This document shows, piece by piece, positions 2,666-31,069 of a DNA stretch of 64,000 bases (positions are counted from its first letter, which is position 1; every line of letters begins with the position of its first letter). Location: positions 3,771-67,770 of the forward strand of contig CAMWRX010000005.1 of the NCBI GenBank assembly GCA_947176765.1. Direction: 5' to 3'. The DNA comes from an uncultured bacterium (GTDB lineage Bacteria > Bacillota > Clostridia > Oscillospirales > Oscillospiraceae). The notes under the pieces are model-generated. The model did not search any database. It saw only the letters and a program-made list of their open reading frames with translations, and was not told the origin of the DNA. Made by a program: the position numbers and the translations under genes.

Positions 2666-4030
2666 TTATATAGTATCTTCCACGCTAAAATCCGACCTCA
2701 TATGCTTATGGTATTCCCACAGACAGACTGCTAAAGCGACTAAGGCTGCCGCTATATCGGCAACTGTGTGGGCAATAGCAATCCCAGCGAATCCCAAAAG
2801 ATTATGCATCAGATGCAGCGAAGGGATGAGGAGAACCCCCTGCCGCAGCACCGAGATGATCGTGGCTGACAAAGCATTGCCGGATGCCTGCAAAAAGTTG
2901 CAGCTCAAGTAATAGACGCCCAGCACTGGCCCGGCCAGCAGCAACCAAACCACCATTTGTTTCCCCAGGGCAAGGGCCTCCGGGTTTTGGAGGAATAGGC
3001 CGATGAGTGTATTTCTTGCCAGAGAACAGAGGACAGTCGTAGCAACACCAAATCCAGCCGTCAGTACCGCTAATTTTTGTAAGACTTCTTTGAGTCGGGG
3101 AATGTTGTGGGCACCATAATTATAGGCCATCAGCGGCTGAACACCCATGCAGATACCCATCTGAATCAGACTAACAGACATCGTTACTTTTCCAGCAGCT
3201 CCCATGGCCGCCTGAGCGTTATAACCATAGTTCAAAAGAAGATGATTGGAAAAAATGGAGGCGCTCCCTGACAAAATACTGCTCATCGCATTTGGAAACC
3301 CCAGGGCCAGTATATTGAGCAGAGCCTGTGGGTAGCGCAATGCATTCGATGGGACAAGGTTTAGAAGGCTGGCTTTGCAAAATACGAATCGGAGATAATA
3401 GGCTGCGGCTACCAAATTGCCGATGACAGTAGCCGCAGCCGCACCCGCCACGCCCAGCTTCAGCATCATGATAAATAGCGGGTCCAAAATCAGATTTACA
3501 GCGGTACCCACCAAATTGCCTATAAAGCCGTCCTTAACAGCACCTTCCGAGCGCAGCAGTGTGCCAAAGCCAGTGGCAAACAGCATCAGTGGCGCGCCAA
3601 TTGCCAGTGTGCGCATATATGCCCTGGCATCGGGTACCACCTCGGACAGGACACCCAGAAAATGCAGGAGGGGATCTGTAAACAGCAGAATGAGGACACC
3701 GCACAGCGAGCCAAACAAAATTGCTGCCCAGCCACACAGGCTGGCGCAGGTTTTCGCATAGTTCGTATCACCCGCACCTGCGGCTTTGGCAATGGTCGCG
3801 CAGCCTCCGACCCCGATCATTGTGGCGATAGCTGTGATGACCGAAAACACAGGGCCAACTACCGCAACTGCTGCCACAGGGGCGGAATCGGCCCCTCCCA
3901 GTTGTCCAACAAAAAACATATCTGCCATGTTGTAAAGAATCATGATCAGGATAGAAAACACAGACGGGACGGCCATAGTCAAAATCGCGTTCCAAACCGG
4001 TTTATCTCGAAATAGCGTCTCATTTTGCAT
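2666..4030 (-). CDS. MATE family efflux transporter
   Basis: About 12 hydrophobic segments, MAVPSVFS..YNMADMFFVGQL, NLILDPLFIMMLKLGVAGAAAATVIG; ATG 4030 with GGAGG RBS. Confidence 0.92.
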   Translation of the reverse strand: MQNETLFRDKPVWNAILTMAVPSVFSILIMILYNMADMFFVGQLGGADSAPVAAVAVVGPVFSVITAIATMIGVGGCATIAKAAGAGDTNYAKTCASLCGWAAILFGSLCGVLILLFTDPLLHFLGVLSEVVPDARAYMRTLAIGAPLMLFATGFGTLLRSEGAVKDGFIGNLVGTAVNLILDPLFIMMLKLGVAGAAAATVIGNLVAAAYYLRFVFCKASLLNLVPSNALRYPQALLNILALGFPNAMSSILSGSASIFSNHLLLNYGYNAQAAMGAAGKVTMSVSLIQMGICMGVQPLMAYNYGAHNIPRLKEVLQKLAVLTAGFGVATTVLCSLARNTLIGLFLQNPEALALGKQMVVWLLLAGPVLGVYYLSCNFLQASGNALSATIISVLRQGVLLIPSLHLMHNLLGFAGIAIAHTVADIAAALVALAVCLWEYHKHMRSDFSVEDTI

Positions 4031-4063
4031 ATTGTATCCCTCCTGCCACATATAAGGCGGAGC

Positions 4064-5086
4064 TTATCCGATTCCGCTTAGTTCTGTCAGCATTTTCTCC
4101 ACAACATCTTCGGAAAGTCCCAACATAGGTGCCAGCGCCTTAAAGGTCATGCCATAGGCACTCTTTGCTTGTTCATTACCAGAAAATCCAGGCAGATACT
4201 TTTCTACAATGGCAGCTCCTGTGCTGCTGTCCATAATAGCAGCAATGGTGCTGTTTGCGCTCAGCTTTTCGCCCGTTACCAGTTCCGGATGCTTCCAACT
4301 GGATACATTTTGGTGCCCGGCACTCAGGGCTCCATCTACCGGAATAGCCGCCCCAGTTATGTACCGAGCCAGGTCACTGGCAAGGAACAATGCAAGAGCC
4401 GCACACTCTGTCGGATCCCCCATACGGCCTGCGGGGCAGTCTGAGGCGAAAAAGTCCATGGCCTGCTGGGGCGCGTCCCCGAAAATGCTGGTTTTCGTGT
4501 AGCCCGGGCAGATGGCATTGACTGTGATCCCGTATTTGGCATAGTCGAGCGCCGCCGCCTTGGTCATCCCGACCACGCCAAATTTGGTGGCCGTATATAG
4601 TGCCTGCCCTTTTTGAGGCGTCAATCCCGCAATGGAAGCCACATTGATAAGGAACCCACCCTGGCTGTGAGACCGGAAGATCGCCTCGGCCCCATACTTC
4701 ATTCCAGCAAATACACCTTTGCTGTTCAGATCGAAGATTTTATCGTAGTCCCCCACCTCGTACTCATGCAGTGGTGTGCCGCCCATGCCGATACCTGCGT
4801 TGTTGACGACGCCGTCCAGCCTGCCATAGTGCTCTACGGCGGTCTTAACGAGCTGCTGGATATCGTCCGCACTGCTGCAATCAGTCTGCACAAAGACAGC
4901 CTCGCCGCCTTTCGCACAGATATCATCTGCCACGGCCTGCCCTTGCTCCTTGCTTCGGGCGGCGCAGACTACCTTCATTCCGTGCGCACCAAAGACCTTG
5001 GCTATCGCTTCACCAATACCGCGGCTTGCGCCAGTGACGATTGCCACTTTCCCTTGAACGCTGCTGAAATCCATAATCTGATCCAT
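4064..5086 (-). CDS. Classical SDR oxidoreductase with an extra ~70-aa C-terminal module
   Basis: TGASRGIG, NNAG, YTATK, VNAICPG; sequence continues beyond the usual SDR end (VDGALSA). Confidence 0.9.
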   Translation of the reverse strand: MDQIMDFSSVQGKVAIVTGASRGIGEAIAKVFGAHGMKVVCAARSKEQGQAVADDICAKGGEAVFVQTDCSSADDIQQLVKTAVEHYGRLDGVVNNAGIGMGGTPLHEYEVGDYDKIFDLNSKGVFAGMKYGAEAIFRSHSQGGFLINVASIAGLTPQKGQALYTATKFGVVGMTKAAALDYAKYGITVNAICPGYTKTSIFGDAPQQAMDFFASDCPAGRMGDPTECAALALFLASDLARYITGAAIPVDGALSAGHQNVSSWKHPELVTGEKLSANSTIAAIMDSSTGAAIVEKYLPGFSGNEQAKSAYGMTFKALAPMLGLSEDVVEKMLTELSGIG

Positions 5087-5153
5087 GTTGTAGCCTCCTC
5101 AAAATAGCCTATTTTAGAAGAAATCAGACGGCTGGTTGTTTTCCCGCCAGGTG

Positions 5154-5182
5154 TTGCTTTTAGTGGGTGACTTTAGTATAAT
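5154..5182 (+). promoter_or_regulatory. Putative sigma70 promoter for tetR; CGACA-N13-TGTCG operator-like repeat just downstream
   Basis: TTGCTT-17nt-TATAAT. Confidence 0.5.
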
Positions 5183-5274
5183 GTTCCTTGTCGGGACAGA
5201 CAACCGACAATATTTCAGGCCATGTCGAGTTTAGCAACATTGGTCCTGTTTCTGTTGCCGAAAGGAGCATCTCC

Positions 5275-5838
5275 ATGAGAAATGATCCACGTACCCGCTA
5301 TACTGAGATGATAATCAAAAAAGAATTTTTGGAGCTTTTACACCATAAGCCTATGAGTAAAATTACCGTGCGGGAGATCTGTGACCGTGCTGAGATCAAC
5401 CGGAGCACGTTCTATAAACATTATCTGGACTGCTATGATCTGCTGGACAAGCTCAAAGAGGAGACACTGACCCAGTTCGATGAGCTGATGGCCGGTATTG
5501 ACGGAAGCGGAGCGACACCAGCCCTTCTTGCCACCCTAAACGCATTGGAACAAAATGCGGAAACCTTTCAGCTGATCGCTCCGGGCAGCGGTGGAGGAGA
5601 GTTCACTCGTCAGGTAGTCCAGCGCTGCTATCAGTATTTAGACATGCGTTTTGCGGAATTGAATGAACGAGGCTGGGATAAGGGACAAAAGGAGACTTGC
5701 TATGCCTTTTTGATCGGAGGAATCAGCAGCGTCATTGAACGTTGGATGCAGTGTGGTTGCAAAGAGCCAGCGGAAGAAGTTGCCGCTACGATCATGAAAT
5801 TGAGCGAGATTATGACATCAGGACTAACTGAAAAATAA
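5275..5838 (+). CDS. TetR/AcrR family regulator, divergent from SDR-MATE
   Basis: KPMSKITVREICDRAEINRSTFYKHY HTH; ATG 5275 after GAAAGGAG. Confidence 0.92.
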   Translation: MRNDPRTRYTEMIIKKEFLELLHHKPMSKITVREICDRAEINRSTFYKHYLDCYDLLDKLKEETLTQFDELMAGIDGSGATPALLATLNALEQNAETFQLIAPGSGGGEFTRQVVQRCYQYLDMRFAELNERGWDKGQKETCYAFLIGGISSVIERWMQCGCKEPAEEVAATIMKLSEIMTSGLTEK

Positions 5839-5870
5839 ACGCAGGCAGGGGCTCCCCCTGCCTGCGTTTA
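5836..5870. terminator. Bidirectional terminator between tetR and GH1
   Basis: TAAACGCAGGCAGGGG / CCCCTGCCTGCGTTTA inverted repeat. Confidence 0.85.
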
Positions 5871-5877
5871 TTTATAC

Positions 5878-7167: not shown

Positions 7168-7197
7168 GATATCAGCTCCTCAATTTTATTAGTCATG

Positions 7198-9456
7198 CTA
7201 GTTCAACTCGGCCAGAATGCCGCTGATCTGTTCATCCGTCATCCCTATAAACTTGGATACGGCATCCAAAGTCATGTCCATCATCATACTCTGCATCGTC
7301 TGCATACCGGCAGCGTCTGCTTCAATATCTCCATGCTGGCCTGCCGCTCCGGCGCTGAATTTCTGGAATATGTGTCCGATCAGCGTTTGGCCCTTCGGTG
7401 TGGCAAGGATCTGGCCAAAGGTGGAAAACTCGGTGAAGTGAACCGGTAGCGTGACCGTACCCTCTACAGTTACCTGCGCAGCCAGCCGGATATCCCGGCT
7501 AGAAGAACCGATTTCAATGGTAAAGGTCCCGCTCTCTACAAACCAGTCATGAATCTTCGGCTCATAATATGCAAACGCCTTTTTCCCCAGAGTAAAAGAA
7601 ACCGTCTTTTCCTCGCCTGGGGCCAACTCTACCTTTTCAAAGCCTTTCAATTCCCGCACTGGGCGGTTGACCCGGCTCTGCTCATCCCGGACATAGAGCT
7701 GGATGACCTCCTTACCAAGGCGAGTACCCGTATTTTTGACTTTGCAGGTCACGGTCAAAGATTCTCTATCAGTAAGTTGAGCTTTATCAAGCTGAATATC
7801 CCCGTACACAAAGCTGGTATAGCTCAAGCCGTGGCCGAAGGGAAACCTGACGGCCATTTTCTTTTTGTCGTAATACCGATACCCCACAAAGACACCCTCG
7901 CGGTACTCCACAATACCGTCCTCGCCAGGAAAATTAAGGAAAGAGGGGTTGTCCTCCAGCTTTATTGGGAAGGTTTCAGCCAGTTTGCCGCTGGGATTGG
8001 CTGTGCCGTACAGCAGATCCACTGCGGCCTCACCCACACCCTCGCCTCCGAGGTACAGTTCCAGGATGGCGGCGGCTTGATCTGCCCAGGGCATTTCAAC
8101 GGGGGAGCCGTTATGCAGAACCACCACCGTATTGGGATTGACCGATGCCACCGCCTCGATCAGCGCGTTTTGGTTGGCGGGCATTGCCATTGAGGTTCGG
8201 TCAAACCCCTCCGATTCATAGCTGTCTGGAAGCCCGGCAAAGATAACGGCGACATCCGCCCGCTTCGCGCACTCCGCGGCCCGCTCTAACAAGTCAGGAT
8301 TAGGTTCCGAAGTCTGAGCCAGGTAGCCTTGCGCAAAGGTCACGTTGAGTCCGGCTGCTTGGGCCGCTTCTACCGCTCCCACTACTTTGTGGGAATTGAT
8401 GTGGCTGCTGCCTGCCCCCTGATAGCGGGGAGCACGCGCGAAGTCTCCCAGGAAAGCCACCCTTTGCTCTTTTGACAGCGGCAGAATATCCCGCGCATTT
8501 TTGAGCAGGACCGCGCATTCCTCAGATGCATGCACGCTGCGGATATGGTCCGTCTCCAAATCCAGTTGGGCTTCAGGACGTCGGCCATCCATATAGCCTT
8601 TTATGTATGTTAGAATTCGGGATACCGTTTGATCAAGCTGCTCCTCAGGCAGCTCTCCGCTTTGAACCGCCGCCACGATTTTGGCCACCTGCTCCGGGTT
8701 GTCGCGGCCCGGCATCTCCAAGTCTACACCAGCGGCGATTCCTTTTACCCGGTCCTTCCCCGCACCCCAGTCGGTGACTACAAAGCCGTCAAAGCCCCAT
8801 TGATCCCGAAGAATTTCGGTGAGCAGTTCCCGGTTTTCGGAAGCATACACGCCATTGATCTGGTTATAGGAGCACATCATGCTTCGGGGCGCTGATTCCT
8901 TGACCATATCCTCAAAGGCGGAGAGATAGATCTCATGCAATGTGCGTTCATCAACCTCAGAGGAGCCGGACATACGCAGGGTTTCCTGGTTGTTGGCGGC
9001 AAAATGCTTGGGGCAGGCGGCGATCCCCTTTCCCTGCAGGCCATTGACATAAGCGGCGGCCAACTGTCCGGCCAGATAGGGGTCCTCAGAAAAATATTCA
9101 AAGTTGCGCCCGCACAGTGGGCTGCGTTTGATGTTCAGACCCGGCCCCAACAGCATGGAGACATCCTCCGCTTGGCATTCCTCACCTAAAACCTCACCCA
9201 GCGTATGAAGCAGAGAACGATCAAATGAGGCTGCCAGAGCTGCGGCGGTGGGGAAACAAACCGCTTTGATACTATCGTTGATGCCTAAGTGGTCAGCTTC
9301 TGCCCCCTGTTTGCGCAGCCCGTGAGGGCCGTCGCACATCATAACACTGGGCACACCTAAACGTTCCAGCGCTTTGGTATGCCAAAAATCCCCTCCAGAG
9401 CAGAACGCGGCCTTTTCTTCAAGGGTCATTTGTGAAAGAATATGTTCCACATCCAC
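7198..9456 (-). CDS. GH3 beta-glucosidase (BglX-like) with Fn3-like domain and extra C-terminal module
   Basis: CGRNFEYFSEDP, KHFAANNQE, VVTDWGA, FPFGHGLSYT; GTG 9456 after GGAGG. Confidence 0.93.
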   Translation of the reverse strand: MDVEHILSQMTLEEKAAFCSGGDFWHTKALERLGVPSVMMCDGPHGLRKQGAEADHLGINDSIKAVCFPTAAALAASFDRSLLHTLGEVLGEECQAEDVSMLLGPGLNIKRSPLCGRNFEYFSEDPYLAGQLAAAYVNGLQGKGIAACPKHFAANNQETLRMSGSSEVDERTLHEIYLSAFEDMVKESAPRSMMCSYNQINGVYASENRELLTEILRDQWGFDGFVVTDWGAGKDRVKGIAAGVDLEMPGRDNPEQVAKIVAAVQSGELPEEQLDQTVSRILTYIKGYMDGRRPEAQLDLETDHIRSVHASEECAVLLKNARDILPLSKEQRVAFLGDFARAPRYQGAGSSHINSHKVVGAVEAAQAAGLNVTFAQGYLAQTSEPNPDLLERAAECAKRADVAVIFAGLPDSYESEGFDRTSMAMPANQNALIEAVASVNPNTVVVLHNGSPVEMPWADQAAAILELYLGGEGVGEAAVDLLYGTANPSGKLAETFPIKLEDNPSFLNFPGEDGIVEYREGVFVGYRYYDKKKMAVRFPFGHGLSYTSFVYGDIQLDKAQLTDRESLTVTCKVKNTGTRLGKEVIQLYVRDEQSRVNRPVRELKGFEKVELAPGEEKTVSFTLGKKAFAYYEPKIHDWFVESGTFTIEIGSSSRDIRLAAQVTVEGTVTLPVHFTEFSTFGQILATPKGQTLIGHIFQKFSAGAAGQHGDIEADAAGMQTMQSMMMDMTLDAVSKFIGMTDEQISGILAELN

Positions 9457-9627
9457 AGAAGTCCCTCCTCCGTTAGATTGTGATTGCAGTATACAAAACT
9501 GGTGACGCCTTTGCGAACAAAAATTTAGAAACAAGTCCTAAAATTCACGGTCTTTTTCCAAGACAGAAAAACTGTGCGAATTTTAGAACCTACTTCTTGA
9601 TTTTTATACGCAAAAAGAAAAAGTCCT

Positions 9628-9636
9628 TGTTATAAT
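9628..9636 (+). promoter_or_regulatory. Extended -10 (TGnTATAAT) for the MFS transporter, no good -35; possibly AraC-activated
   Basis: TGTTATAAT about 55 nt upstream of the GGAGG RBS. Confidence 0.45.
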
Positions 9637-9692
9637 CGGGCCATCCAATTTCCAGCGACGCATGAAAAACAAAAATTTGAGGAGGAGCAAAT

Positions 9693-11183
9693 ATGTTTGG
9701 CAAAAACAAACCCAGCCAGAGCGAAATCGACGGCGTGCAGTACCGCCGCGCCAAGCTGTGGCAGATCATCCTGTACGCCTGCAACGGCTTTGTGGGCATG
9801 AGCGTCTACTCTCTCATTGGTATGGCCAGCTACAGCGCCAGCATCGGCTACGGCATCAGCACCATCGTGGTGGGCTATATCCTCACCGGCACCCGCATCC
9901 TGGACGCTGTCACCGACCCCCTGCTGGCCTTCCTCTATGATAAAGTCAATACCCGGTTTGGCAAGCTGCGAGTGCTGCTGGTGGGCGGCTTTGCCGTTGA
10001 AGCCGTTGCCCTGCTGTGTATGTTCAACTTTATGAGCAGCAAGGGCTTTGGCGTGGTAATGTTTACCTTGTTGTATGTAGTCTACGTTATCGGCTATACC
10101 ATCACCAACATGACTGCCCAGACCATCCCCGCCATCATGACCAACGACCCCAAGCAGCGCCCCCTCATCGGCGTGTGGACCACCGCGTTCAACTATCTGG
10201 TGCCCATGACCATGATGATCGTGCTGAATATGGTGCTGCTGCCCATGTTCGGCGGGCAGTATAATCAGGCGTTTCTCTCCACCGCCTGCTGGGTGTGCAT
10301 CGGTATGGGAGCTGTCGGCATCATCCTGGTGTGTATCGGCGTCAGCGCTTTCGACAAGCCGGAAAACTTCACCGGCGTCAGCAATAAGCGTGAACCCCTG
10401 AAGATTAAGGACATGGTGTCCGTCCTGAAGGGCAACCGTCCCCTCCAATGCTATATCGTGGCCCAGGCCACCGACAAGCTGGCCACCCAGACCAACTCCC
10501 AGTCCATCATCAACACCCTGCTGTTCGGCATCGTCATCGGCAATATGGGCATTGCCACCACTTTGCAGGCGGTCAGTATGCTGCCCTCCATCCTCTTTGC
10601 CATCCTGGGTGCCAGGTACGCCGGAAAGGTCGGCAGCAAAAAGACCATCGTCACCTGGAGCACCATTTCCATGGTGGTGGCGGTGGTGACCGTCCTGTTT
10701 TTCGTGGTCATCGACCCCAAGCAGATTGCCGTCATGGGCCCCATGATGATCATTTACGTAATCCTGAACCTGGCCCTCAGCGGCTCTATGATGTGCGTCA
10801 CCACCGGCAGCACCGCATTTATGGCGGACGTCATTGACTACGAGCTGGACCGCTCCGGCAAGTACGTCCCCGCCGTGGTCACCGGCGTGTACAGTCTCAT
10901 TGACAAGATCGTCTCCGCCTTCGGAGCCACCATTGCCACCGCCTGCGTGGCCCTCATCGGCTACACCGCCACCCTGCCCCAGCCCGGGGACGAGATGACC
11001 ACGGCGCTGTTCTGGATGACCATGTTCGTCAAGTTCGGTATGCCTATCCTGGGCTGGCTTGCCACCCTGGCCGCCATGCGGTTCTGTAAACTGAGTAAGA
11101 CGGAAATGGTGGAAGTGCAAAAGCGCATTGCGGAGAAAAAAGCCGCCGCCGTCCAGGAAGTGGCGAAAGAAAACCTGAAATAA
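9693..11183 (+). CDS. GPH-family (MFS_2) glycoside/sugar transporter
   Basis: ILTGTRILDAVTDPLLAFLYDK..TRFGKLR; MADVIDYE...VTGVYSLIDKIVSAFG; about 12 TM. Confidence 0.9.
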   Translation: MFGKNKPSQSEIDGVQYRRAKLWQIILYACNGFVGMSVYSLIGMASYSASIGYGISTIVVGYILTGTRILDAVTDPLLAFLYDKVNTRFGKLRVLLVGGFAVEAVALLCMFNFMSSKGFGVVMFTLLYVVYVIGYTITNMTAQTIPAIMTNDPKQRPLIGVWTTAFNYLVPMTMMIVLNMVLLPMFGGQYNQAFLSTACWVCIGMGAVGIILVCIGVSAFDKPENFTGVSNKREPLKIKDMVSVLKGNRPLQCYIVAQATDKLATQTNSQSIINTLLFGIVIGNMGIATTLQAVSMLPSILFAILGARYAGKVGSKKTIVTWSTISMVVAVVTVLFFVVIDPKQIAVMGPMMIIYVILNLALSGSMMCVTTGSTAFMADVIDYELDRSGKYVPAVVTGVYSLIDKIVSAFGATIATACVALIGYTATLPQPGDEMTTALFWMTMFVKFGMPILGWLATLAAMRFCKLSKTEMVEVQKRIAEKKAAAVQEVAKENLK

Positions 11184-11199
11184 TGCCGTCAGGCGCAAG

Positions 11200-11231
11200 C
11201 AAGGGCGTCCGCTTTCGGGCGGACGCCCTTG
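11200..11231. terminator. Hairpin between convergent MFS and araC genes
   Basis: CAAGGGCGTCCGC / GCGGACGCCCTTG. Confidence 0.75.
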
Positions 11232-11235
11232 GGAA

Positions 11236-12453: not shown

Positions 12454-12684
12454 AATGCTCAACCACCTTTCCTGGTTTTCATTGTAGCATAGATTTTTAC
12501 GCAATGCACGATATTTTGAAAACCTCCAAACGTTACTTTTTGCGCGGATGTTGTTTTCCGAAACACAATCAGGAAAAGTGTTTCTTTTTTCGTCACGTGG
12601 TGTAAAATTGCTGGTTGCCGAAAAAAACGCCATGATTTACAATAGGTTTCAGATACCAATACAACCCCAAAGGAGCTGTTTGTT

Positions 12685-22861: not shown

Positions 22862-24349
22862 ATGCTTTACATTGGCATTGATTTAGGCACCTCAGCCTGC
22901 AAGTTGCTGCTGGTGGACGGGAGCGGTAATGTACTGAACGAGGTAACAAAGGAGTACCCCCTGTCCCTCCCTCGCCCCGGCTGGTCGGAGCAGAACCCGG
23001 AGGATTGGTGGCGGGCGGTGACGGACGGTGTGCCCGAACTGCTGGCGGGCTTCGACACAGCACAAGTTGCGGGCATCGGCGCGGGCGGACAGATGCACGG
23101 GTTGGTGGTGCTGGATGAGCACGATGAAGTCATCCGTCCCGTTATCCTGTGGAACGACGGGCGGACAGCCAAAGAGGTGAGCTATCTTAACAACGAGATC
23201 GGCCGGGAAAACCTGAGCCAGTACACCGCCAACATCGCCTTTGCGGGTTTCACCGCCCCCAAACTGCTGTGGATGCGGGAAAATGAGCCGGATCACTTTG
23301 CGAAAATCCGCAAAATCATGCTTCCCAAGGATTACATCAATTACAAGCTCACCGGCATTCACTGCACCGACTACTCTGACGCTTCCGGGATGCTCCTGCT
23401 GGACGTCCAAAACAAACGGTGGAGCCGCGAAATGTGCGATATTTGTGGAATCGCCGAGGAGCAGCTCCCCAAGCTGTACGAGAGTTGGGAGACGGTGGGC
23501 ACACTGAAAGCCGATGTGGCGGAAACGCTGGGCCTACCCGAGACGGTGAAGGTGTGCGCTGGGGCGGGCGACAATGCCGCTGCCGCAGTGGGCACGGGGA
23601 TCGTAGGAGCCGGCGGCTGCAACATCAGCCTGGGCACCTCTGGCACCATTTTCATCAGCTCGGACAAGTTCGGCGTAGACCCCAACAACGCCCTTCACGC
23701 TTTTGCCCACGCGGACGGCGGCTGGCACCTGATGGGCTGTATGCTGTCCGCCGCCTCCTGCAACAAGTGGTGGTGCGAGGATATCCTGGGCACCAGCGAC
23801 TACCCTACGGAGCAGAAGCCCATCGATGAGGAAAAACTGGGCCGAAACCGGGTGTTCTTTCTGCCCTACCTCATGGGCGAGCGTTCCCCCATCAACGATA
23901 CCGACGCCCGGGGCACCTTCGTGGGCATGAGCATGGACACCACCCGGGCCGACTTCACCCAGGCCGTCTTAGAGGGGGTGGCCTTTGCCATCCGGGACAG
24001 CTTCGAGGTGGCAAAGGTCCTGGGTGTGAATATCCCCCGGAGCATGATCTGCGGCGGCGGGGCCAAGTCCCCCCTGTGGCGGACAATTTTGGCCAACGTG
24101 CTGGGCATCCCCTTGGACTTGCCCCAAACTGAACAGGGCCCCGGTTACGGCGGCGCAGTACTGGCTATGGTGGGCTGCGGGGCCTTTGAGAGCGTCCAAT
24201 CCGCCTGCGACGCGCTGGTGCGAGTGGCGGGCACTGTGGAGCCGAACCCCGAACTCACTGGTCGGTATGAGGAGTGCTACCGCAAATTCAAACAAATCTA
24301 TCCCTGCATGAAACCGCTGTTTCACAACTTGAAAGAGGAGGACACATGA
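22862..24349 (+). CDS. xylB: Xylulokinase (FGGY family)
   Basis: YIGIDLGTS, GQMHG, ILWNDGRT, FTAPKLLW, GAGDNAAAAVG, FLPYLMGERSP. Confidence 0.92.
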   Translation: MLYIGIDLGTSACKLLLVDGSGNVLNEVTKEYPLSLPRPGWSEQNPEDWWRAVTDGVPELLAGFDTAQVAGIGAGGQMHGLVVLDEHDEVIRPVILWNDGRTAKEVSYLNNEIGRENLSQYTANIAFAGFTAPKLLWMRENEPDHFAKIRKIMLPKDYINYKLTGIHCTDYSDASGMLLLDVQNKRWSREMCDICGIAEEQLPKLYESWETVGTLKADVAETLGLPETVKVCAGAGDNAAAAVGTGIVGAGGCNISLGTSGTIFISSDKFGVDPNNALHAFAHADGGWHLMGCMLSAASCNKWWCEDILGTSDYPTEQKPIDEEKLGRNRVFFLPYLMGERSPINDTDARGTFVGMSMDTTRADFTQAVLEGVAFAIRDSFEVAKVLGVNIPRSMICGGGAKSPLWRTILANVLGIPLDLPQTEQGPGYGGAVLAMVGCGAFESVQSACDALVRVAGTVEPNPELTGRYEECYRKFKQIYPCMKPLFHNLKEEDT

Positions 24350-25821
24350 TGAAAAACATTCCTGACGTAAAGCTGGGCCTGATTGCGGTGAGCCGCGACT
24401 GCTTCCCCATCGTCCTGTCTGAAAAGCGCCGCGCCGCGGTCAAAGCCGCCTATACGGGTGACCTCTACGAGTGCCCCGTTACAGTGGAAAACGAACTGGA
24501 TATGCTCAAGGCCGTGGCCGATGTGAAGGCCGCTGAGTGTAATGCCCTGGTGGTATTCCTGGGCAACTTTGGCCCGGAGACACCGGAAACCCTCATTGCC
24601 AAAAACTTTGACGGCCCCTGTATGTTCGTGGCCGCCGCCGAGGGGGACGGCGACCTCATCAATGGCCGAGGCGACGCCTATTGCGGGATGCTCAACTGCT
24701 CCTACAATCTGGGTATGCGACATTTAAAGGGCTACATTCCTGAGTACCCCGTGGGCACGGCGCAAGATATTGCCCAGATGATTGCCGAGTTTGTTCCCAT
24801 TGCCCGGGCAGTAATCGGCGTGAAAAATCTGAAGATTATTACCTTCGGCCCCAGGCCCCAGGACTTCTTCGCTTGCAATGCCCCCATCAAGGGCTTGTGC
24901 GAACTGGGTGTGGAGGTAGAGGAGAACTCCGAGTTGGACCTGCTGGTCAGCTACAAAGAACATGCCAATGATCCCCGCATCCCTGCTGTCTGCGCCGAAA
25001 TGGCAGAGGAAATGGGCGAGGGCCGCTACTACCCCGACTTAGACGAGCGGATGGCACAGTTTGAACTGACCCTGCTGGACTGGGCAGAGAACCACAAAGG
25101 CTCCCGGCAGTACGTGGCCTTCGCCGACAAGTGCTGGCCCGCCTTCCCCAGCCAGTTCGGCTTCGAGCCTTGCTATGTGAACTCCCGCTTGGCCGCCCGG
25201 GGCATCCCTGTGGCCTGCGAGGTGGACATCTATGGCGCACTGTCTGAGTACATCGGTGCCTGCGTGTCCGGCGATGCGGTGACCCTGCTGGATATCAACA
25301 ACTCCGTCCCCGCCCGGATGTGGGAGGAGCAGATCAAGGGCAAGTACGACTATGCCCTCACCGACACCTTTATGGGCTTCCACTGTGGCAACACCCCTGC
25401 CTGCAAGCTGTGCGCTGACCGCGCCGTCAAATATCAGCTCATCCAGAACCGCCTGCTGGAGAATGGCAGCGAACCCGACTTCACCCGGGGCACACTGGAG
25501 GGCGATATTGCACCCGGTGACATCACCTTCTACCGTCTCCAGTGCGACAGTGATGGGAACCTGCGCTCCTACATCGCCCAGGGCGAGGTGCTGCCCGTGG
25601 CAACGGGCAGCTTCGGCGGCATCGGCGTGTTTGCCATCCACGAGATGGGCCGCTTCTACCGCCACATCCTCATCCAGAAGCGCTATCCCCACCACGGGGC
25701 GGTGGCTTTCGGCCATTACGGCAAGGCGCTGTTCGAGGTGTTCAAGTTCCTGGGGGTGCAGGATATTGCCTATAACCAACCAAAGGGCCTGCCCTATCCA
25801 ACGGAGAATCCCTGGGGTTGA
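24346..25821 (+). CDS. FucI-like sugar isomerase, probably the clostridial xylose isomerase XylA-II type
   Basis: KLGLIAVSRDCFP, GDAYCGMLN, ACEVDIYG, FHCGN, YPHHGAVAFGH; ATGA-coupled to xylB, matching my recollection of the C. acetobutylicum xylA-II/xylB arrangement. Confidence 0.8.
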   Translation: MMKNIPDVKLGLIAVSRDCFPIVLSEKRRAAVKAAYTGDLYECPVTVENELDMLKAVADVKAAECNALVVFLGNFGPETPETLIAKNFDGPCMFVAAAEGDGDLINGRGDAYCGMLNCSYNLGMRHLKGYIPEYPVGTAQDIAQMIAEFVPIARAVIGVKNLKIITFGPRPQDFFACNAPIKGLCELGVEVEENSELDLLVSYKEHANDPRIPAVCAEMAEEMGEGRYYPDLDERMAQFELTLLDWAENHKGSRQYVAFADKCWPAFPSQFGFEPCYVNSRLAARGIPVACEVDIYGALSEYIGACVSGDAVTLLDINNSVPARMWEEQIKGKYDYALTDTFMGFHCGNTPACKLCADRAVKYQLIQNRLLENGSEPDFTRGTLEGDIAPGDITFYRLQCDSDGNLRSYIAQGEVLPVATGSFGGIGVFAIHEMGRFYRHILIQKRYPHHGAVAFGHYGKALFEVFKFLGVQDIAYNQPKGLPYPTENPWG

Positions 25822-25934
25822 TATATGATAGCTTAAAGGGCGCAAAGGGTGCTATGTCCCCAACGGACTGAAGGTCGAGACGGACTGGTATGTGACGTTT
25901 GCTGCCCCAATATTTTGCAATGGAGGAAAGATGT

Positions 25935-27017
25935 ATGAAAATGACATGGCGCTGGTACGGCGAGGGCAACGATCAGATCAAGCTGTCCGACATCAAGCAG
26001 ATCCCCGGCGTGGAGGGCATTGTTTGGGCGTTGCACAACAAAATGCCCGGCGAGGTCTGGGAGCTGGACGAGATCGCCGAGGTTCAGCAGCAGCTCAAAC
26101 CCTACGGCTTTAACATGGACGTGGTGGAGAGCGTCAATGTCCACGACGACATCAAGATCGGCCTGCCCACCCGGGACGCGCTGATTGAAAACTACAAGCA
26201 GACCATAAAAAACCTGGCCAGATTTGACGTGAAGGTAATCTGCTATAATTTCATGCCGGTGTTCGACTGGACCCGTACCGACCTGTTCCACCCCGTGGGG
26301 GACGGCTCCACGGCGCTGTACTATGAGGTCAGCAAGATTCACGAGGATCCCAAGGAGATGGCGGACTACGTCATGTCCTTCACCGAGAAGTACAATATGA
26401 CCTTCCCCGGCTGGGAGCCGGAGCGGATGGCCAAGCTGGACGAGCTGTTTGAGAAGTACAAGCCCGTCACCAAGGAGAAGCTGTGGGACAACCTGAAGTA
26501 CTTTCTGGAGGCCATCATGCCCACCTGCCGGGAGTGCGATATCAAGATGGCCATCCACATGGATGACCCTCCCTGGGACATCTTCGGCCTGCCCCGCCTG
26601 CTGGTGGACGGCCCCTCCATCGACCGCTTCCTGTCCATGGTGGACGACCCCTACAACTGCCTGACCCTGTGCTCCGGCAGCCTGAACGCCAACCCGGACA
26701 ACAACGTGGCGGACATCGTGCGCAAGCACTGCGACAGGATTGCGTTCGCCCACATCCGCAACGTGAAGCATTTCGACAACGGCGACTTCTCCGAGGCCAG
26801 CCACCGGGACTGCGACGGCGACACCGGCATCCTGGATATTCTCAAGGCATACCACGACTGCGGCTTTGATGGCTACATCCGTCCTGACCACGGCCGGCAC
26901 CTGTGGAACGAGGTGCCCGGCAAGGTGCGCCCCGGCTATGGCCTGTATGACCGCGCCCTGGGTATCATGTATATGCTGGGCGTTTGGGATATGCTTGATA
27001 AGCTGGATAACAAATAA
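25935..27017 (+). CDS. uxuA: Mannonate dehydratase
   Basis: MKMTWRWYG, CYNFMPVFDWTRT, IRPDHG, RPGYGLYDRALG. Confidence 0.95.
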   Translation: MKMTWRWYGEGNDQIKLSDIKQIPGVEGIVWALHNKMPGEVWELDEIAEVQQQLKPYGFNMDVVESVNVHDDIKIGLPTRDALIENYKQTIKNLARFDVKVICYNFMPVFDWTRTDLFHPVGDGSTALYYEVSKIHEDPKEMADYVMSFTEKYNMTFPGWEPERMAKLDELFEKYKPVTKEKLWDNLKYFLEAIMPTCRECDIKMAIHMDDPPWDIFGLPRLLVDGPSIDRFLSMVDDPYNCLTLCSGSLNANPDNNVADIVRKHCDRIAFAHIRNVKHFDNGDFSEASHRDCDGDTGILDILKAYHDCGFDGYIRPDHGRHLWNEVPGKVRPGYGLYDRALGIMYMLGVWDMLDKLDNK

Positions 27018-27035
27018 TTGATAGGAGGACATAAA

Positions 27036-27881
27036 ATGATTGATCTGCCTTTGAACGTTGATTTTACCGGCAAAGTAGTGGTTGTTACCGGCGCGGGCGG
27101 CGTGCTGTGCGGCACCATGGCCAAGGCTTTTGCTCAGGCGGGTGCCAAAGTCGCGGCTCTGGATCTGAACGAAGAGGCCGTCAAGGCCCTGGCCGACGAG
27201 TGCAAGGCCGAGGGCTTCATCTGCGAGGGCTACAAGGCCAACGTGCTGGAACCGGAAACCCTGGAAGCCGTCCATCAGCAGGTGCTCAAAGACCTGGGCC
27301 CCTGCGACATTCTGGTCAACGGCGCGGGCGGCAACAATCCCCGTGCCACCACCGACAACGAGTACCAGCACGAATGGTCTGAGGGCAAGAAGGGCTTCTT
27401 CGACCTGGACGCCGGCGGCGTGGACTTCGTGTTCAAGCTGAACTTCCAGGGCACCCTGCTGCCCACCCAGACCTTTGCCAAAGACATGGTGGAGCGCAAA
27501 AGCGGCTGCATCCTGAACATCTCCTCCATGAACGCCTATATCCCGCTGACCAAGATTCCCGCCTACTCCGGCGCGAAAGCCGCCATCAGCAACTTCACCC
27601 AGTGGCTGGCCACTCACTTTGCCAAGTCCGGCATCCGCTGCAACGCCATTGCCCCGGGCTTCCTGGTGTCCAACCAGAACCGCGCTCTGCTGTTCAACCC
27701 GGACGGAACCCCCACGGCACGCTCCGCCAAGATCCTGAACGGCACCCCCATGGGCCGCTACGTGGACAGCGAGGAGCTGCTGGGCGCCGTGTTCTTCCTG
27801 TGCGACGACAAGGCCGCCTCCGCTATCACCGGCGTGGTGCTGCCCATCGACGCGGGCTTTGCCGCTTACTCTGGTGTGTAA
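27036..27881 (+). CDS. uxuB: D-mannonate oxidoreductase / fructuronate reductase (SDR type)
   Basis: TGAGGVLC, NGAGGN, YSGAK; located between uxuA and uxaC. Confidence 0.85.
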   Translation: MIDLPLNVDFTGKVVVVTGAGGVLCGTMAKAFAQAGAKVAALDLNEEAVKALADECKAEGFICEGYKANVLEPETLEAVHQQVLKDLGPCDILVNGAGGNNPRATTDNEYQHEWSEGKKGFFDLDAGGVDFVFKLNFQGTLLPTQTFAKDMVERKSGCILNISSMNAYIPLTKIPAYSGAKAAISNFTQWLATHFAKSGIRCNAIAPGFLVSNQNRALLFNPDGTPTARSAKILNGTPMGRYVDSEELLGAVFFLCDDKAASAITGVVLPIDAGFAAYSGV

Positions 27882-27885
27882 AGGC

Positions 27886-29310
27886 ATGAAAAACTTCATG
27901 GATCAGGACTTCCTTTTGAAGTCCGAGACAGCGAAAACCCTGTACCATGACCACGCAGAGAAAATGCCCATCATTGACTACCACTGCCACATTAACCCCG
28001 CCGAGATCTACGAGGACAAGCGGTACGACACCATCACCGAGGTCTGGCTGGGGGGCGACCACTACAAGTGGCGGGCCATGCGCTCCTGCGGCGTTCCTGA
28101 GAAATACATCACCGGCAACGCCACCCCGGCGGAGAAGTTCCAGAAGTGGGCCGAGACCATCCCAAGCCTCATCGGCAACCCGCTGTATCACTGGACCCAC
28201 CTGGAGCTCCAGCGCTATTTCGGCATCACCGAGCCCCTCAACGGCGGCAATGCCATGGAAATTTTTGAGAAGTGCAACACCATCCTGGCCCAGCCGGATA
28301 TGTCCGCCCGGGGCATCATCCGCAAGTCCAACGTGAAGCTGATCTGCACCACCGACGACCCCGCCGACGACCTGAAGTATCACGAGCTCCTCGCCGCCGA
28401 TCCCGACGCCCCCGCGGTGGTGCTGCCCGCCTTCCGGCCCGACAAGGCCATGCGGGCGGATAAGCCGGACTTCCCCCAGTATGTGGCCCATTTTGAAAAG
28501 GTGGTGGGCTGGCCCATCAATACGGTGGACGATATGCGCCGCGCTCTGGCTGACCGGATCGAGTATTTTGACAATCACCGCTGCCGCGTCTCTGACCACG
28601 GGCTGGACTGCGCCTTCTGCGTGGAAGCCGACGAAGACACGCTGAATGATATCTTCACCCGCGCCAAGGCGGGCAAGGGCCTCACCTGGGACGAGCAGCT
28701 TGCCTACCACACCGCGCTGCTGATCGCCGTGGGCAAGGAGTACGCCAAGCGCGACTGGGTGAACCAGCTCCACTTCGGTTGCATCCGGGACAACTCCAGC
28801 ACCATGTTTAAGAAGCTGGGACCGGACACTGGCTACGACGCCGTCAACGACGTGCCCAACGCCGTGGGCCTGGCCCGGATGCTGGACGCGCTGGAAAGCG
28901 CCGGGGCGCTGGGCAAGACCATCCTGTACTCCCTGAACCCCTCGGACAACGCCGCCATCGGCACCATCATGGGCGCGTTCCAGACCAACAGCCCCATCCC
29001 CGGCAAGATCCAGCAGGGCTCCGCCTGGTGGTTCAACGACCACAAGCCCGGCATGGAGGCCCAGATGACCAGCCTCATGTCCCTGGGCGCCATGGGCACC
29101 TTCAACGGGATGCTCACCGACTCCCGTAGCTTCCTGAGCTACACCCGCCACGAGTATTTCCGCCGCATCCTGTGCAACCTGTTTGGCCAGGTGGTGGAGG
29201 ACGGGGAGTACCCCGCCGATCTGAAGCACCTGGGCCAGATGGTGGAGAACATCAGCTACTACAACACCCTGCGTTATTTCCGGTTCGACGAAATTCTCAA
29301 GAATTCCTGA
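27886..29310 (+). CDS. uxaC: Uronate isomerase
   Basis: PIIDYHCH, GDHYKWRAMR, WWFND, GMLTDSRSFLSYTRHEYFRRILC. Confidence 0.96.
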   Translation: MKNFMDQDFLLKSETAKTLYHDHAEKMPIIDYHCHINPAEIYEDKRYDTITEVWLGGDHYKWRAMRSCGVPEKYITGNATPAEKFQKWAETIPSLIGNPLYHWTHLELQRYFGITEPLNGGNAMEIFEKCNTILAQPDMSARGIIRKSNVKLICTTDDPADDLKYHELLAADPDAPAVVLPAFRPDKAMRADKPDFPQYVAHFEKVVGWPINTVDDMRRALADRIEYFDNHRCRVSDHGLDCAFCVEADEDTLNDIFTRAKAGKGLTWDEQLAYHTALLIAVGKEYAKRDWVNQLHFGCIRDNSSTMFKKLGPDTGYDAVNDVPNAVGLARMLDALESAGALGKTILYSLNPSDNAAIGTIMGAFQTNSPIPGKIQQGSAWWFNDHKPGMEAQMTSLMSLGAMGTFNGMLTDSRSFLSYTRHEYFRRILCNLFGQVVEDGEYPADLKHLGQMVENISYYNTLRYFRFDEILKNS

Positions 29311-29315
29311 ATCAG

Positions 29316-29346
29316 GGCTTTTCCCCGCCTTCGGCGGGGAAAAGCC
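29316..29346 (+). terminator. Hairpin between uxaC and eda (terminator or mRNA stabiliser)
   Basis: GGCTTTTCCCCGC / GCGGGGAAAAGCC inverted repeat. Confidence 0.6.
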
Positions 29347-29400
29347 GGGTAAATCACTTGTTTGACGAAATTTTGAAATAAGAGGAGAGGAAGATCAATC

Positions 29401-30048
29401 ATGAACGCATTGAATGAAGCCATTTCCAAGATCGGCGTGGTGCCCGTCATCAAGCTGAACAACCCCGAGCGGGACGCCGCCCCGTTGGCGCGCGCCCTGT
29501 GCGCCGGCGGCGTGCCGGTGGCGGAGGTCACCTTCCGGGCCGCGGGCGCGGACAAGGCCATCAGGCTGATGCGGGAAGCCTGCCCCGAAATGATGGTGGG
29601 CGCGGGCACCGTTACCACCACCGCCCACGTGGACGCCACCATCGCGGCGGGCGGGCAGTTCATCGTCACCCCCGGCTTCGACCCGGAGATCGTGGCCTAC
29701 TGCCAGGAGAAGAACATCCCCATCTATCCCGGCTGCACCACCCCCACCGACTACCACGCGGCGCTGAAGTTCGGCTTGGAGCTCATCAAGTTCTTCCCCG
29801 CCGAGCAGTCCGGCGGCCTTGCCAAGATCAAGGCCATGGCGGCCCCGTTCCCCCAGTTTAAGGTCATGCCTACCGGCGGCATCTCCCTGAAGAACCTGAA
29901 GGAGTACCTCTCCGCCCCCGTGATCGCCGCCTGCGGCGGCTCCTACATGGTCACCGCCGACCTGATCGACGGCCAGAAGTGGGACGAGATCACCGAGCTG
30001 TGCAAGAAATCCATTGAAATCGTGAAGGAGGCCCGCAATCATGGCTAA
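29401..30048 (+). CDS. eda: KDPG/KHG aldolase
   Basis: EVTFR, GAGTV, VTPG, KFFPA, MPTGGI. Confidence 0.95.
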   Translation: MNALNEAISKIGVVPVIKLNNPERDAAPLARALCAGGVPVAEVTFRAAGADKAIRLMREACPEMMVGAGTVTTTAHVDATIAAGGQFIVTPGFDPEIVAYCQEKNIPIYPGCTTPTDYHAALKFGLELIKFFPAEQSGGLAKIKAMAAPFPQFKVMPTGGISLKNLKEYLSAPVIAACGGSYMVTADLIDGQKWDEITELCKKSIEIVKEARNHG

Positions 30049-31069
30049 AGTAGTAACCTTTGGTGAGCTGATGATCCGGCTCCAGCCCTACAACTATGAG
30101 CGCTTCGTCCAGGCCGACCACCTGGAATTCTCCTTCGGCGGCGGCGAGGCCAACGTGGCCGTGTCCCTGGCCAACTACGGCCTGGACGCCATTTACGTCA
30201 CCAAGCTGCCCGCCCACGCCATCGGCCAGGCGGCGGTGAACTCCCTGCGGCGCTACGGCGTGGACACGACCAAGATCACCCGCGGCGGCGACCGGGTGGG
30301 CATCTACTTCAACGAGAAGGGCGCCTCCCAGCGGGGCAGCGTGTGCATTTACGACCGGGCCCACTCCGCTATCCAAGAGGCCACCACCGCCGACTTCGAC
30401 TGGGACGCCATCTTCGAGGGCGTGGATTGGTTCCATTTCACCGGCATCACCCCGGCTCTCGGCCCCAATGTCGTCGAGATATGCAGGGAAGCCTGCAAGG
30501 CCGCCAAGGCCCACGGCGTCAAGATCTCCTGCGACCTCAATTACCGCGGCAAGCTGTGGACCCGGGAGCAGGCCCGCGCCGCCATGACCGATCTGTGCCA
30601 GTATGTGGACGTGTGCATCTCCAACGAGGAGGACGCCAAAGACGTGTTCGGCATCGAGGCTGAGGCCACCGACATCTACGCCGGCGAGATCAACCGGGAG
30701 GGCTATAAGTCCGTGGCCAAGCAGCTGGCGGACAGGTTCGGCTTCGAGAAGGTGGCCATCACCCTGCGGGAGAGCCACTCCGCCTTCGACAACGGCTGGT
30801 CCGCTATGCTGTACGACGTGGCGTCCGGCGAGTACTGCTTCTCCAAGAAGTACGAGCTGCACATCATCGACCGGGTGGGCGGCGGCGACAGCTTCGGCGG
30901 CGGGCTGATCTACGCCCTGCTGAACGGCTACAGCACCCAGGGCGCGGTGGAGTTCGCCGTGGCGGCATCCGCCTTAAAACACTCCATCGAGGGCGACTAC
31001 AACATGGTCACCGTCTCCGAGGTGGAGAAGCTGGCCGGCGGCGATGGCTCCGGGCGCATTCAACGGTAG
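30041..31069 (+). CDS. kdgK: 2-keto-3-deoxygluconate kinase (PfkB family)
   Basis: FGGGEANVAVSLA, DLNYR.KLW, DRVGGGDSF. Confidence 0.93.
   Translation: MAKVVTFGELMIRLQPYNYERFVQADHLEFSFGGGEANVAVSLANYGLDAIYVTKLPAHAIGQAAVNSLRRYGVDTTKITRGGDRVGIYFNEKGASQRGSVCIYDRAHSAIQEATTADFDWDAIFEGVDWFHFTGITPALGPNVVEICREACKAAKAHGVKISCDLNYRGKLWTREQARAAMTDLCQYVDVCISNEEDAKDVFGIEAEATDIYAGEINREGYKSVAKQLADRFGFEKVAITLRESHSAFDNGWSAMLYDVASGEYCFSKKYELHIIDRVGGGDSFGGGLIYALLNGYSTQGAVEFAVAASALKHSIEGDYNMVTVSEVEKLAGGDGSGRIQR

Follow-up and report, generated by a model that had tools for sequence, protein, structure and literature searches.

A conserved seven-gene glycosidase cluster with a predicted FMN-binding β-glucuronidase and a lyase-like TIM barrel in an uncultured Oscillospiraceae bacterium

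We analyzed a 64,000-nucleotide stretch of DNA, hereafter the window, from an uncultured bacterium of the Oscillospiraceae. It covers positions 3771–67770 of contig C5 in a 2.67-Mb metagenome-assembled genome of 122 contigs (59% GC, 96% completeness), whose nearest public relatives are uncultured gut Oscillospiraceae labelled ‘Faecousia’, ‘Clostridia bacterium’ or Acutalibacter. The first 31 kb hold a locus of glycoside hydrolases (GH) and sugar-catabolic genes (Table 1). Its core is a seven-gene unit present in dozens of Oscillospiraceae and Lachnospiraceae: a GH1 β-glycosidase, a GPH-type importer, an AraC-family regulator, a GH2 β-glucuronidase (GUS), a divergent GH43 enzyme (GH43a), an XI-like TIM barrel and a GH78 α-L-rhamnosidase. 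The robust part of our interpretation is that the locus encodes a set of cytoplasmic exo-glycosidases yielding glucuronate, rhamnose, pentose and hexose from a substrate small enough for a GPH carrier. We give about an even chance to the narrower proposal that this substrate is a small, amphipathic plant glycoside, for example a saponin or a flavonoid glycoside.

The core emerges from a survey of 80 loci anchored on the GH1 enzyme, one genome per species, onto which all proteins of the window were mapped. GUS (at least 40% identity) and the GPH carrier are each found in 44 of the 80 loci, the AraC regulator in approximately 42, GH78 (one of two types) in approximately 36 and GH43a in 35. The TIM barrel is present in 36 loci, all of which also contain GUS, and in 34 of them no more than 2.5 kb separates the two. 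Clustering of the remaining open reading frames (ORFs) in the 80 loci produced no other recurrent family. Because the same genes recur jointly in dozens of genomes, their grouping is not due to chance. Among those that have the cluster are Oscillospiraceae, Lachnospiraceae (Roseburia hominis, Acetatifactor and Blautia-like) and Mediterraneibacter glycyrrhizinilyticus (L021). Contigs that are very common in the human gut have the genes in the order of the window, followed by UxaC, KdgK and RhaA. In four relatives (L095, at 9165–9998, and L096–L098), a GDSL/SGNH esterase occupies the position between GH43a and the TIM barrel where the window has a second GH43 gene, GH43b, which suggests that the substrates are acylated. 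Within the bacterium’s own family the distribution of the cluster is patchy: among 150 genomes, GUS is found in 16 and the TIM barrel in three, abutting GUS in two of the three. Two surveyed loci carry a PNPOx-like flavin-binding protein beside the cluster (L091, region 8022–9138, and L095, 295–801); the region in L091 also encodes a Mac/hexapeptide acetyltransferase, of a kind thought to detoxify non-metabolisable glycosides.

The GH2 enzyme, to which the first-pass annotation had assigned galactose or glucuronate linkages, is a β-glucuronidase and not a galactosidase. It aligns over its full length with the GUS Rh3 of Roseburia hominis (PDB 7KGZ; approximately 72% identity, 1138 bits), a protein crystallised with flavin mononucleotide (FMN) bound, and scores 811–814 bits against 6MVG and 6MVH. 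Judged by these alignments, it belongs to the FMN-binding, no-loop class. The segments SNEIT, SEYGAD and GQNQKGLVT are kept in the alignment with 7KGZ; we take them to be the motifs of the catalytic glutamates (acid/base and nucleophile) and of NxK carboxylate recognition. Enzymes of the Rh3 class are efficient on glucuronides with hydrophobic aglycones. Rh3 itself cleaves triclosan glucuronide efficiently and requires its C-terminal domain to do so; in GUS this domain lies alongside the active site, and action on a hydrophobic glucuronide depends on it. Triclosan and mycophenolate are among the glucuronidated drugs that FMN-binding GUS of the gut reactivate. The flavin is located in a shallow surface groove, approximately 30 Å from the active site. 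In Fp2GUS the aromatic residues of the groove are Tyr154 and Phe179 (bioRxiv 10.64898/2026.06.20.733316), and the corresponding region of the window GUS is nearly identical to that of Rh3, a comparison of regions and not a residue-level alignment to 6MVF. Our literature search returned no description of a conserved gene neighbourhood for FMN-binding GUS, which does not prove its absence from the literature, and the papers that we found do not deal with what these enzymes act on in nature, what the flavin does or what purpose the C-terminal domain serves.

Few members of the cluster are as tightly conserved as the TIM barrel, which did not appear in the first-pass list of genes. When 31 homologues were combined into a profile, it matched only six sequences in the PDB. 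The best matches are the 3-keto-β-glucopyranoside 1,2-lyases AL1 (8TCD, 8TCS) and BT1 (8TCT), with E values of about 1e-18, followed by the O-glycoside β-eliminase of A. tumefaciens (AtOGE). Foldseek, run with an AlphaFold model (pLDDT 85), returned the same ranking (E of about 2e-16 and TM scores of 0.70–0.74 against 8TCR, 8TCD and 8TCT) and then the 2-hydroxy-3-keto-glucal hydratase AtHYD. All 31 homologues keep residues H149, H151, E154, D182, W185, H208 and E257 unchanged. In AL1, His178, Asp211 and His237 are the metal ligands, His180 and Trp214 contact the substrate, and Glu272 is catalytic (AL1/BT1 preprint). The segments YHNHNCEF, FEFDSYW and LWHINDR of the window protein align with YHNHAHEF, IELDVYW and MLHIKDR of AL1; ILESH aligns with IVEVE, a weaker segment, and the residue numbering was matched by motif spacing. 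In sequence, modelled fold and active-site motifs, the protein is closest to the 3-keto-β-glycoside 1,2-lyases, and its probable role is to break, once the sugar has been oxidised, a bond on which hydrolases act poorly. We also considered a sugar isomerase of the UxaE, IolE or ketose-epimerase kind. This reading was dropped because the lyases rank first, with IolE and the epimerases scoring lower, and because the DxYW/HNH signature fits the lyases.

GUS shares a further feature with two other enzymes of the locus, the GH3 glycosidase and a short-chain dehydrogenase/reductase (SDR). All three end in a helical module of approximately 80 residues that belongs to no Pfam family. The GH3 tail aligns with the SDR tail (hhalign probability 93%, E 4e-7) and with the C-terminal domain of GUS (96%, E 4e-9); the direct comparison of SDR and GUS is weak (15%), and the homology runs via the GH3 tail. 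Significance was reached in profile-profile comparison alone: a hidden Markov model of three sequences gave no proof of homology, and a phmmer search with the SDR tail against 1.8 billion representative proteins matched SDR orthologues, a GH78-module-esterase fusion (P0035) and, from GH3, a single C-terminal fragment, but no GUS. The simplest inference from a module common to the three enzymes is that they recognise a shared feature of one substrate family.

The SDR is of the classical type, with readable TGxxxGxG and YxxxK motifs and approximately 82 residues beyond the Rossmann fold. The suggestion that it acts as a hydroxysteroid or triterpenoid dehydrogenase gains no support from its sequence: its top 25 NCBIfam and 37 PDB matches are FabG, glucose-1-dehydrogenases, butanediol dehydrogenases and generic SDRs. 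In the window, the SDR gene is accompanied by genes for a TetR repressor and a MATE efflux transporter, and the first-pass annotation had made the co-conservation of these three with the glycosidases a test of its proposal. The GH1-anchored loci and the 150 family genomes pointed to a lack of co-conservation. This conclusion was overturned by a reciprocal survey anchored on the SDR, a 335-residue version of which, including the tail, is abundant in gut metagenomes. We took the ten matches with the longest contigs, regardless of their neighbours; the ten are not phylogenetically independent. In seven of them the SDR is located in or beside the cluster of GUS, GH1, GH43, TIM barrel and GH78, and a TetR_C_8 regulator is found at most two genes from the SDR, again in seven of ten. 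The arrangement varies. The genes follow the order GH1, TetR, MATE-SDR in L084 and L094; the SDR comes after GH78 within the operon in L086 and L092 and straight after GH1 in L088; and a divergent TetR and SDR pair adjoins the cluster in L089 and L091. This variety, at least four arrangements, argues for repeated association with the cluster. The remaining contexts (L083, L090 and L093) contain no GUS cluster. Co-conservation with the glycosidases is thus found for the SDR and TetR, and the link of the MATE transporter is loose.

Table 1. Features of the window, in window coordinates
Feature	Position	Strand	Basis or remark
MATE efflux transporter	2666–4051	−	Pfam MatE, 150 bits; TIGR00797 above cut-off
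SDR oxidoreductase, classical, 340 aa	4064–5086	−	Pfam adh_short
C-terminal module of SDR	4067–4312	−	helical, ~80 aa, no Pfam family
SDR/TetR divergent control region, 188 bp	5087–5274		read from sequence
TetR repressor	5275–5838	+	TetR_N and TetR_C_8; ORF opens at 5188
19-bp perfect hairpin (inverted repeat I7)	5833–5873		between convergent TetR and GH1 genes
GH1 β-glycosidase, 429 aa	5878–7167	−	Pfam GH1, 259 bits
GH3 with Fn3-like domain and C-terminal module	7198–9534	−	likely start 9429
C-terminal module of GH3	7201–7455	−	helical, ~80 aa, no Pfam family
GPH-type (MFS_2) glycoside:cation symporter	9693–11183	+	Pfam MFS_2
AraC-family regulator	11236–12633	−	large N-terminal domain
GH2 β-glucuronidase (GUS) with C-terminal domain	12685–14877	+	Pfam Glyco_hydro_2_N, Glyco_hydro_2, Glyco_hydro_2_C
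C-terminal module of GUS	14605–14874	+	helical, ~80 aa, no Pfam family
GH43a, divergent GH43 with F5/8 type C and further β-sandwich domain	14889–16712	+	Pfam
GH43b, second GH43, xylosidase/arabinofuranosidase type	16740–18215	+	
XI-like TIM barrel, 282 aa	18230–19078	+	
GH78 α-L-rhamnosidase	19091–21301	+	four Pfam rhamnosidase domains
ORF, 181 aa	21366–21911	+	no family match; low GC
XylB	22862–24349	+	pentose catabolism
FucI-like isomerase	24274–25821	+	pentose catabolism
UxuA, UxuB (SDR type), UxaC, Eda, KdgK (KDG kinase)	25899–31069	+	glucuronate catabolism
Orphan OmpR-type response regulator	31097–31807	+	
Strong terminator 3′ of response regulator	31805–31849		ends long plus-strand gene run
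Rhamnose operon: AraC-type regulator, rhamnulokinase, FucI/AraA-like isomerase, RhaD, lactaldehyde reductase	58115–63921	+	

Gene identities were assigned by Pfam and NCBIfam scans of all long ORFs. Every family named in the first-pass annotation (GH1, GH3, GH2, two GH43, GH78, GPH, SDR, TetR, MATE and the catabolic enzymes) is intact and in place. Its statement that the glycosidases carry no obvious signal peptide also stands: none has a hydrophobic N-terminal segment, by a heuristic that is not SignalP, in which the highest mean Kyte-Doolittle value over 12 residues within the first 46 is at most 1.2. Likewise, the scans found neither an ABC solute-binding protein nor a secreted endo-enzyme in the region from 2.6 to 31 kb. 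The GPH carrier, the presumed importer of glycosides, matches Pfam MFS_2 above the cut-off (132 bits) and TIGR00792 below it (131 bits; cut-off 231).

Among the glycosidases, GH78 has all of its domains (N-terminal, concanavalin-like, six-hairpin catalytic with 312 bits, and C-terminal), and its nearest solved structure is SaRha78A (3W5M). The nearest structures to GH1 are 4R27, 6IER and 1VFF. For GH43a, the AlphaFold2 model (pLDDT 89) has BT_3662 (5MSX) as its top fold match, at 16% identity and a phmmer E value of 1e-5, a match at the level of the fold and not a CAZy subfamily typing. BT_3662 is a GH43_34 α-L-arabinofuranosidase (PMC8939339). The remaining two enzymes are accessory. GH3 is nearest to the β-glucosidases 8J9F and 7MS2, its best NCBIfam model, an exo-α-L-arabinopyranosidase, scores far under the cut-off, and the clusters of the closest relatives lack it. 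GH43b scores 421 bits against the arabinofuranosidase/xylosidase 9NO3 and is an insertion; at its position relatives have the GDSL esterase or nothing. Its homologues adjoin the SDR in L086 and L087 and lie within the cluster operon in L092.

The sugars that these enzymes would release have catabolic routes nearby. UxuA, UxuB, UxaC and Eda score above their NCBIfam cut-offs, so that the hexuronate genes are present as had been claimed, limited to the glucuronate branch: searches of the whole genome, which is 96% complete, found neither UxaA (altronate dehydratase) nor UxaB (tagaturonate reductase). A glucuronate branch alone argues against pectin, and we therefore rejected pectin or galacturonate as the source. 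Pentose catabolism is represented by a xylulokinase (XylB; TIGR01312, 580 bits, above cut-off) and an adjoining FucI-fold isomerase with a Fucose_iso_C domain, together at 22862–25821, and the rhamnose genes expected at 59–64 kb are present. In both pathways an isomerase of the FucI/AraA fold (24274–25821 beside the xylulokinase and 60487–61905 beside the rhamnulokinase) replaces the canonical xylose or rhamnose isomerase; the NCBIfam matches of the two are weak and are to sulfoquinovose and L-arabinose isomerase.

In the pathway that we propose, the GPH-type symporter would bring in small glycosides under the control of the AraC regulator. The exo-enzymes would then strip the sugars singly, GH78 removing α-L-rhamnose, the two GH43 enzymes arabinofuranose or xylose, and GH3 and GH1 β-linked hexoses. 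The GUS would take off glucuronic acid, the aglycone-attached sugar in many plant saponins and flavonoid conjugates. The TIM barrel would probably break the hydrolase-resistant linkage in the manner of a 3-keto-glycoside lyase. Freed glucuronate, pentose and rhamnose would enter the adjacent catabolic pathways, and the TetR-controlled SDR and MATE transporter would be an add-on that modifies and expels the hydrophobic remainder. Of the original proposal of intracellular glycoside stripping, we retain the cytoplasmic exo-acting set, the GPH importer and the neighbouring pathways for glucuronate, pentose and rhamnose; a dehydrogenase specialised for steroids or triterpenoids is not supported by the sequence. 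A plant glycoside, for example an oleanane 3-O-glucuronide saponin or a flavonoid glycoside, is favoured by the TetR/SDR/MATE companion and the shared module, by the known preference for hydrophobic aglycones in this class of GUS, and by the esterase in relatives. It is also favoured by the cluster in M. glycyrrhizinilyticus, a species isolated as a glycyrrhizin hydrolyser.

Several observations weigh against plant glycosides as the substrate. The SDR has generic relatives only. It is present in just two of the 44 cluster loci of the GH1-anchored set and has no orthologue above 42% identity in the 150 same-family genomes, and a MATE gene (45–58% identity) lies beside the cluster in three of the ten SDR contexts (L084, L092 and L094). 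Uptake of a saponin of approximately 1 kDa by a GPH carrier is in question. No Gfo/Idh/MocA oxidoreductase is encoded in the cluster, and none is recurrent in the 80 loci; one defining feature of the known lyase pathway is therefore missing from the cluster, and the two Gfo/Idh/MocA copies of the genome sit on other contigs. Finally, the enzyme set suits nearly as well oligosaccharides of arabinogalactan-protein (AGP) that consist of rhamnose, glucuronic acid and two galactoses (Rha-GlcA-Gal-Gal) and bear arabinofuranose (Araf).

The last point defines the strongest alternative, which we consider possible but the less probable of the two substrates. The bacterium may cross-feed on oligosaccharides that other gut bacteria free from type II, gum-arabic-like AGP. 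The substrate would be α-L-Rha-(1-4)-β-GlcA-(1-6)-β-Gal-(1-6)-Gal with Araf, which GH78, GUS, GH1 and the GH43 enzymes would dismantle in the cytoplasm, and the TetR-SDR-MATE genes would then play no part, or a sugar would be the substrate of the SDR. The constituents of this tetrasaccharide match the enzyme set exactly, and B. longum leaves the same tetrasaccharide outside the cell, where other commensals consume it (PMC8939339). The best fold match of GH43a belongs to GH43_34, a subfamily active on AGP and rhamnogalacturonan II, SaRha78A is the nearest solved GH78, and SDR, TetR and MATE are missing from most clusters. On the other hand, the family of SDRs with the tail is mostly found beside the cluster, and a module common to SDR, GH3 and GUS is hard to explain if the substrate consists of sugars alone. 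Hydrophobic aglycones are what this class of GUS is known for, none of the structures nearest to GH1 is a known β-1,6-galactosidase, and the GDSL esterase of relatives has no obvious role in AGP breakdown.

A different question is how the locus came to be in this genome. The first-pass annotation called the pathway mobile, and it is unlikely, in our view, that the whole of it is cargo of a mobile genetic element. The distribution in same-family genomes is patchy, as the counts for GUS and the TIM barrel show, and a same-genus genome keeps the flanking ligA, ParM-like and YpsA genes without the island, with approximately 8.6 kb of other genes at the site of the window’s approximately 31 kb. The GC content at third codon positions (GC3) forms a mosaic: 0.77–0.92 in the core and catabolic genes, 0.52–0.61 in GH3 (0.61), GH43b (0.60), SDR, MATE and TetR, and 0.39 in one ORF. 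Elements of mobility are found next to related clusters. L096 (15770–19808), L097 and L098 have two or three genes for large serine recombinases and a gene with a Sigma70_r4_2 domain approximately 3 kb past the GH78 end of the cluster, L097 also has a CI-like repressor, and in L094 a Transposase_mut gene (11161–12048) abuts the SDR. Moreover, a segment at 38–57 kb of the window resembles a conjugative element. The window itself gives no direct support. No recombinase, transposase or relaxase family was detected among the scanned ORFs of at least 100 residues between 0.6 and 31.9 kb, no tRNA gene or flanking direct repeat was found around the island, and no integrase was found within the window. 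The GC3 of the core is typical of the neighbouring catabolic genes, and genus-conserved genes lie between the element-like segment and the cluster. The island is patchy, mosaic and strain-specific, and mobility as a single unit is not supported in the window. The island is accessory and was probably assembled by several transfers.

The element-like segment (38000–57500) consists mainly of unknown genes, including those for a DUF932 protein (50384–51472, minus strand) and a pentapeptide-repeat protein (47776–48627, minus strand). At the other end of the window, downstream of ligA, an N6-adenine methylase-like gene (634–1569) and an ORF without known family (1590–2168) extend up to a strong terminator (2177–2212); neither has a match after ligA in the same-genus genome. 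The 181-residue ORF, the one with a GC3 of 0.39, has GH78 on one side and, on the other, a gap of 950 bp that leads up to xylB; it looks like a recent insertion.

It is doubtful, to a somewhat greater degree than for the mobile-element proposal, that the TetR-SDR-MATE genes are a generic drug-efflux or detoxification unit placed beside the glycosidases by chance. They form separate transcription units with their own regulator and terminator, and their GC3 (0.52–0.60; MATE 0.55) is under that of the core (approximately 0.8). They are absent from the clusters of the closest relatives and from the 150 same-family genomes, and MATE genes are common in Clostridia. However, a chance neighbour does not account for an SDR in or beside the cluster in seven of ten contexts, in three of which (L086, L088 and L092) it stands within the glycosidase operon without TetR, nor for the C-terminal module that it has in common with GH3 and GUS.

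The arrangement of the signals agrees with separate units. The hairpin at which the TetR and GH1 genes converge is likely a bidirectional terminator that splits GH3-GH1 from SDR-MATE, the MATE gene follows the SDR gene in one transcription unit at a distance of 13 bp, and the plus-strand run from GUS to the response regulator contains no strong terminator before 31805. The SDR/TetR control region has promoter-like matches on both strands, with TATAAT at 5177–5182 followed by the palindrome TTGTCGG-N9-CCGACAA at 5188–5210, a candidate TetR operator. TetR likely starts at the ATG at 5275, behind the ribosome-binding site GAAAGGAG. The true start of the AraC regulator may be internal, because its relatives have approximately 400 residues. 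A second TetR_C_8 regulator (33511–34035, minus strand) is divergent from a BD-FAE/Abhydrolase_3 esterase (34182–35246), next to which lies a cardiolipin-synthase-like PLD protein (35278–36798). The esterase could deacylate acylated glycosides; no link between it and the glycosidase cluster was found.

The weakest alternative, which we judge very unlikely, is a classical scavenger that uses bile-excreted host or xenobiotic glucuronides as a carbon source, like the gus system of E. coli, with the other glycosidases merely co-located: GUS, the GPH carrier and glucuronate catabolism are grouped and FMN-binding GUS do cleave drug glucuronides, but dozens of genomes keep GH78, GH43, GH1 and the TIM barrel alongside GUS, and the linked rhamnose and pentose pathways serve sugars that host glucuronides do not carry.

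For plant glycosides as the substrate, we can outline a more specific chemistry, which is a long shot. The core would join Koshland glycosidases with an oxidation-elimination step in a Gram-positive cytoplasm. A Gram-positive fosmid (P2B11) encodes a pair of ‘isomerases’ of this kind and a pair of oxidoreductases that cleave α- and β-glucuronides (AL1/BT1 preprint). The TIM barrel would act on a 3-keto-glycoside, for which a 3-keto-glucuronide or a sugar in ester linkage may be considered. Where the tail-bearing SDR is present, it would serve as the oxidant; elsewhere an unlinked dehydrogenase would. The flavin of GUS is the least likely oxidant, kept only as a remote one because of its distance of approximately 30 Å from the active site. 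The shared C-terminal module would be an aglycone-recognition or docking domain through which unrelated enzymes could act on one amphipathic plant glycoside. If this were true, the FMN-binding GUS, so far known chiefly for the reactivation of drugs, would gain a native pathway and a native class of substrates.

The Rh3-like GUS clade sits in a conserved seven-gene unit, and a dehydrogenase with what appears to be the same C-terminal module travels along with it. Candidate native substrates are oleanane-type glucuronide saponins, flavonoid glycosides or AGP oligosaccharides. This suggests that dietary inducers could modulate the GUS activity that reactivates drugs, and it hints that gut Firmicutes may have a cleavage step that is not hydrolytic.

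The locus can be compared with several known systems. The gus/uid system of E. coli consists of the GUS uidA, the GPH-family glucuronide carrier uidB and the TetR-type repressor uidR, together with the Uxa/Uxu regulon. Common to both are a GUS, a GPH-type importer, glucuronate catabolism and a TetR-family regulator nearby. In the window, however, the regulator of the glycosidases is of the AraC type, TetR would serve the SDR and the pump, and there are five more glycosidases and a lyase-like TIM barrel. Gut Clostridia that metabolise glycyrrhizin combine, according to older biochemistry, a β-glucuronidase with a 3β-hydroxysteroid-type dehydrogenase acting on glycyrrhetinic acid; we know of no genes identified for these activities. 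The idea of a GUS and a dehydrogenase acting on a triterpenoid aglycone is the same, and the cluster is present in M. glycyrrhizinilyticus, but the sequence of the window SDR has no tie to steroids. With the systems of B. longum and Bacteroides for AGP (gum arabic), the locus shares the target sugars Rha, GlcA, Araf and Gal and a GH43_34-like fold. Those systems rely on secreted or surface-anchored GH43_24, GH39, GH30, GH145 and PL27 enzymes, whereas the window locus has none of these and is predicted to work in the cytoplasm behind a GPH carrier.

Closest to the window GUS are the FMN-binding enzymes Rh3 (7KGZ), Rh2 (6MVH), R. gnavus GUS (6MVG) and F. prausnitzii L2-6 GUS (6MVF), all with the same architecture of GH2 and C-terminal domains. 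These were studied as isolated proteins on drug glucuronides. The TIM barrel, finally, can be set beside the oxidation-elimination systems Alistipes AL1–AL5, B. thetaiotaomicron BT2156–2160, fosmid P2B11 and AtOGE/AtHYD; its best matches are the AL1/BT1 lyases, whose His/His/Asp/Trp/His/Glu site it keeps at 22–24% identity to the known lyases. The AL1/BT1-type systems are periplasmic and have Gfo/Idh/MocA and DUF1080 partners, whereas the window protein is predicted to be cytoplasmic and has neither partner in its cluster. Unlike the known oxidation-elimination systems, it is embedded among classical Koshland glycosidases.

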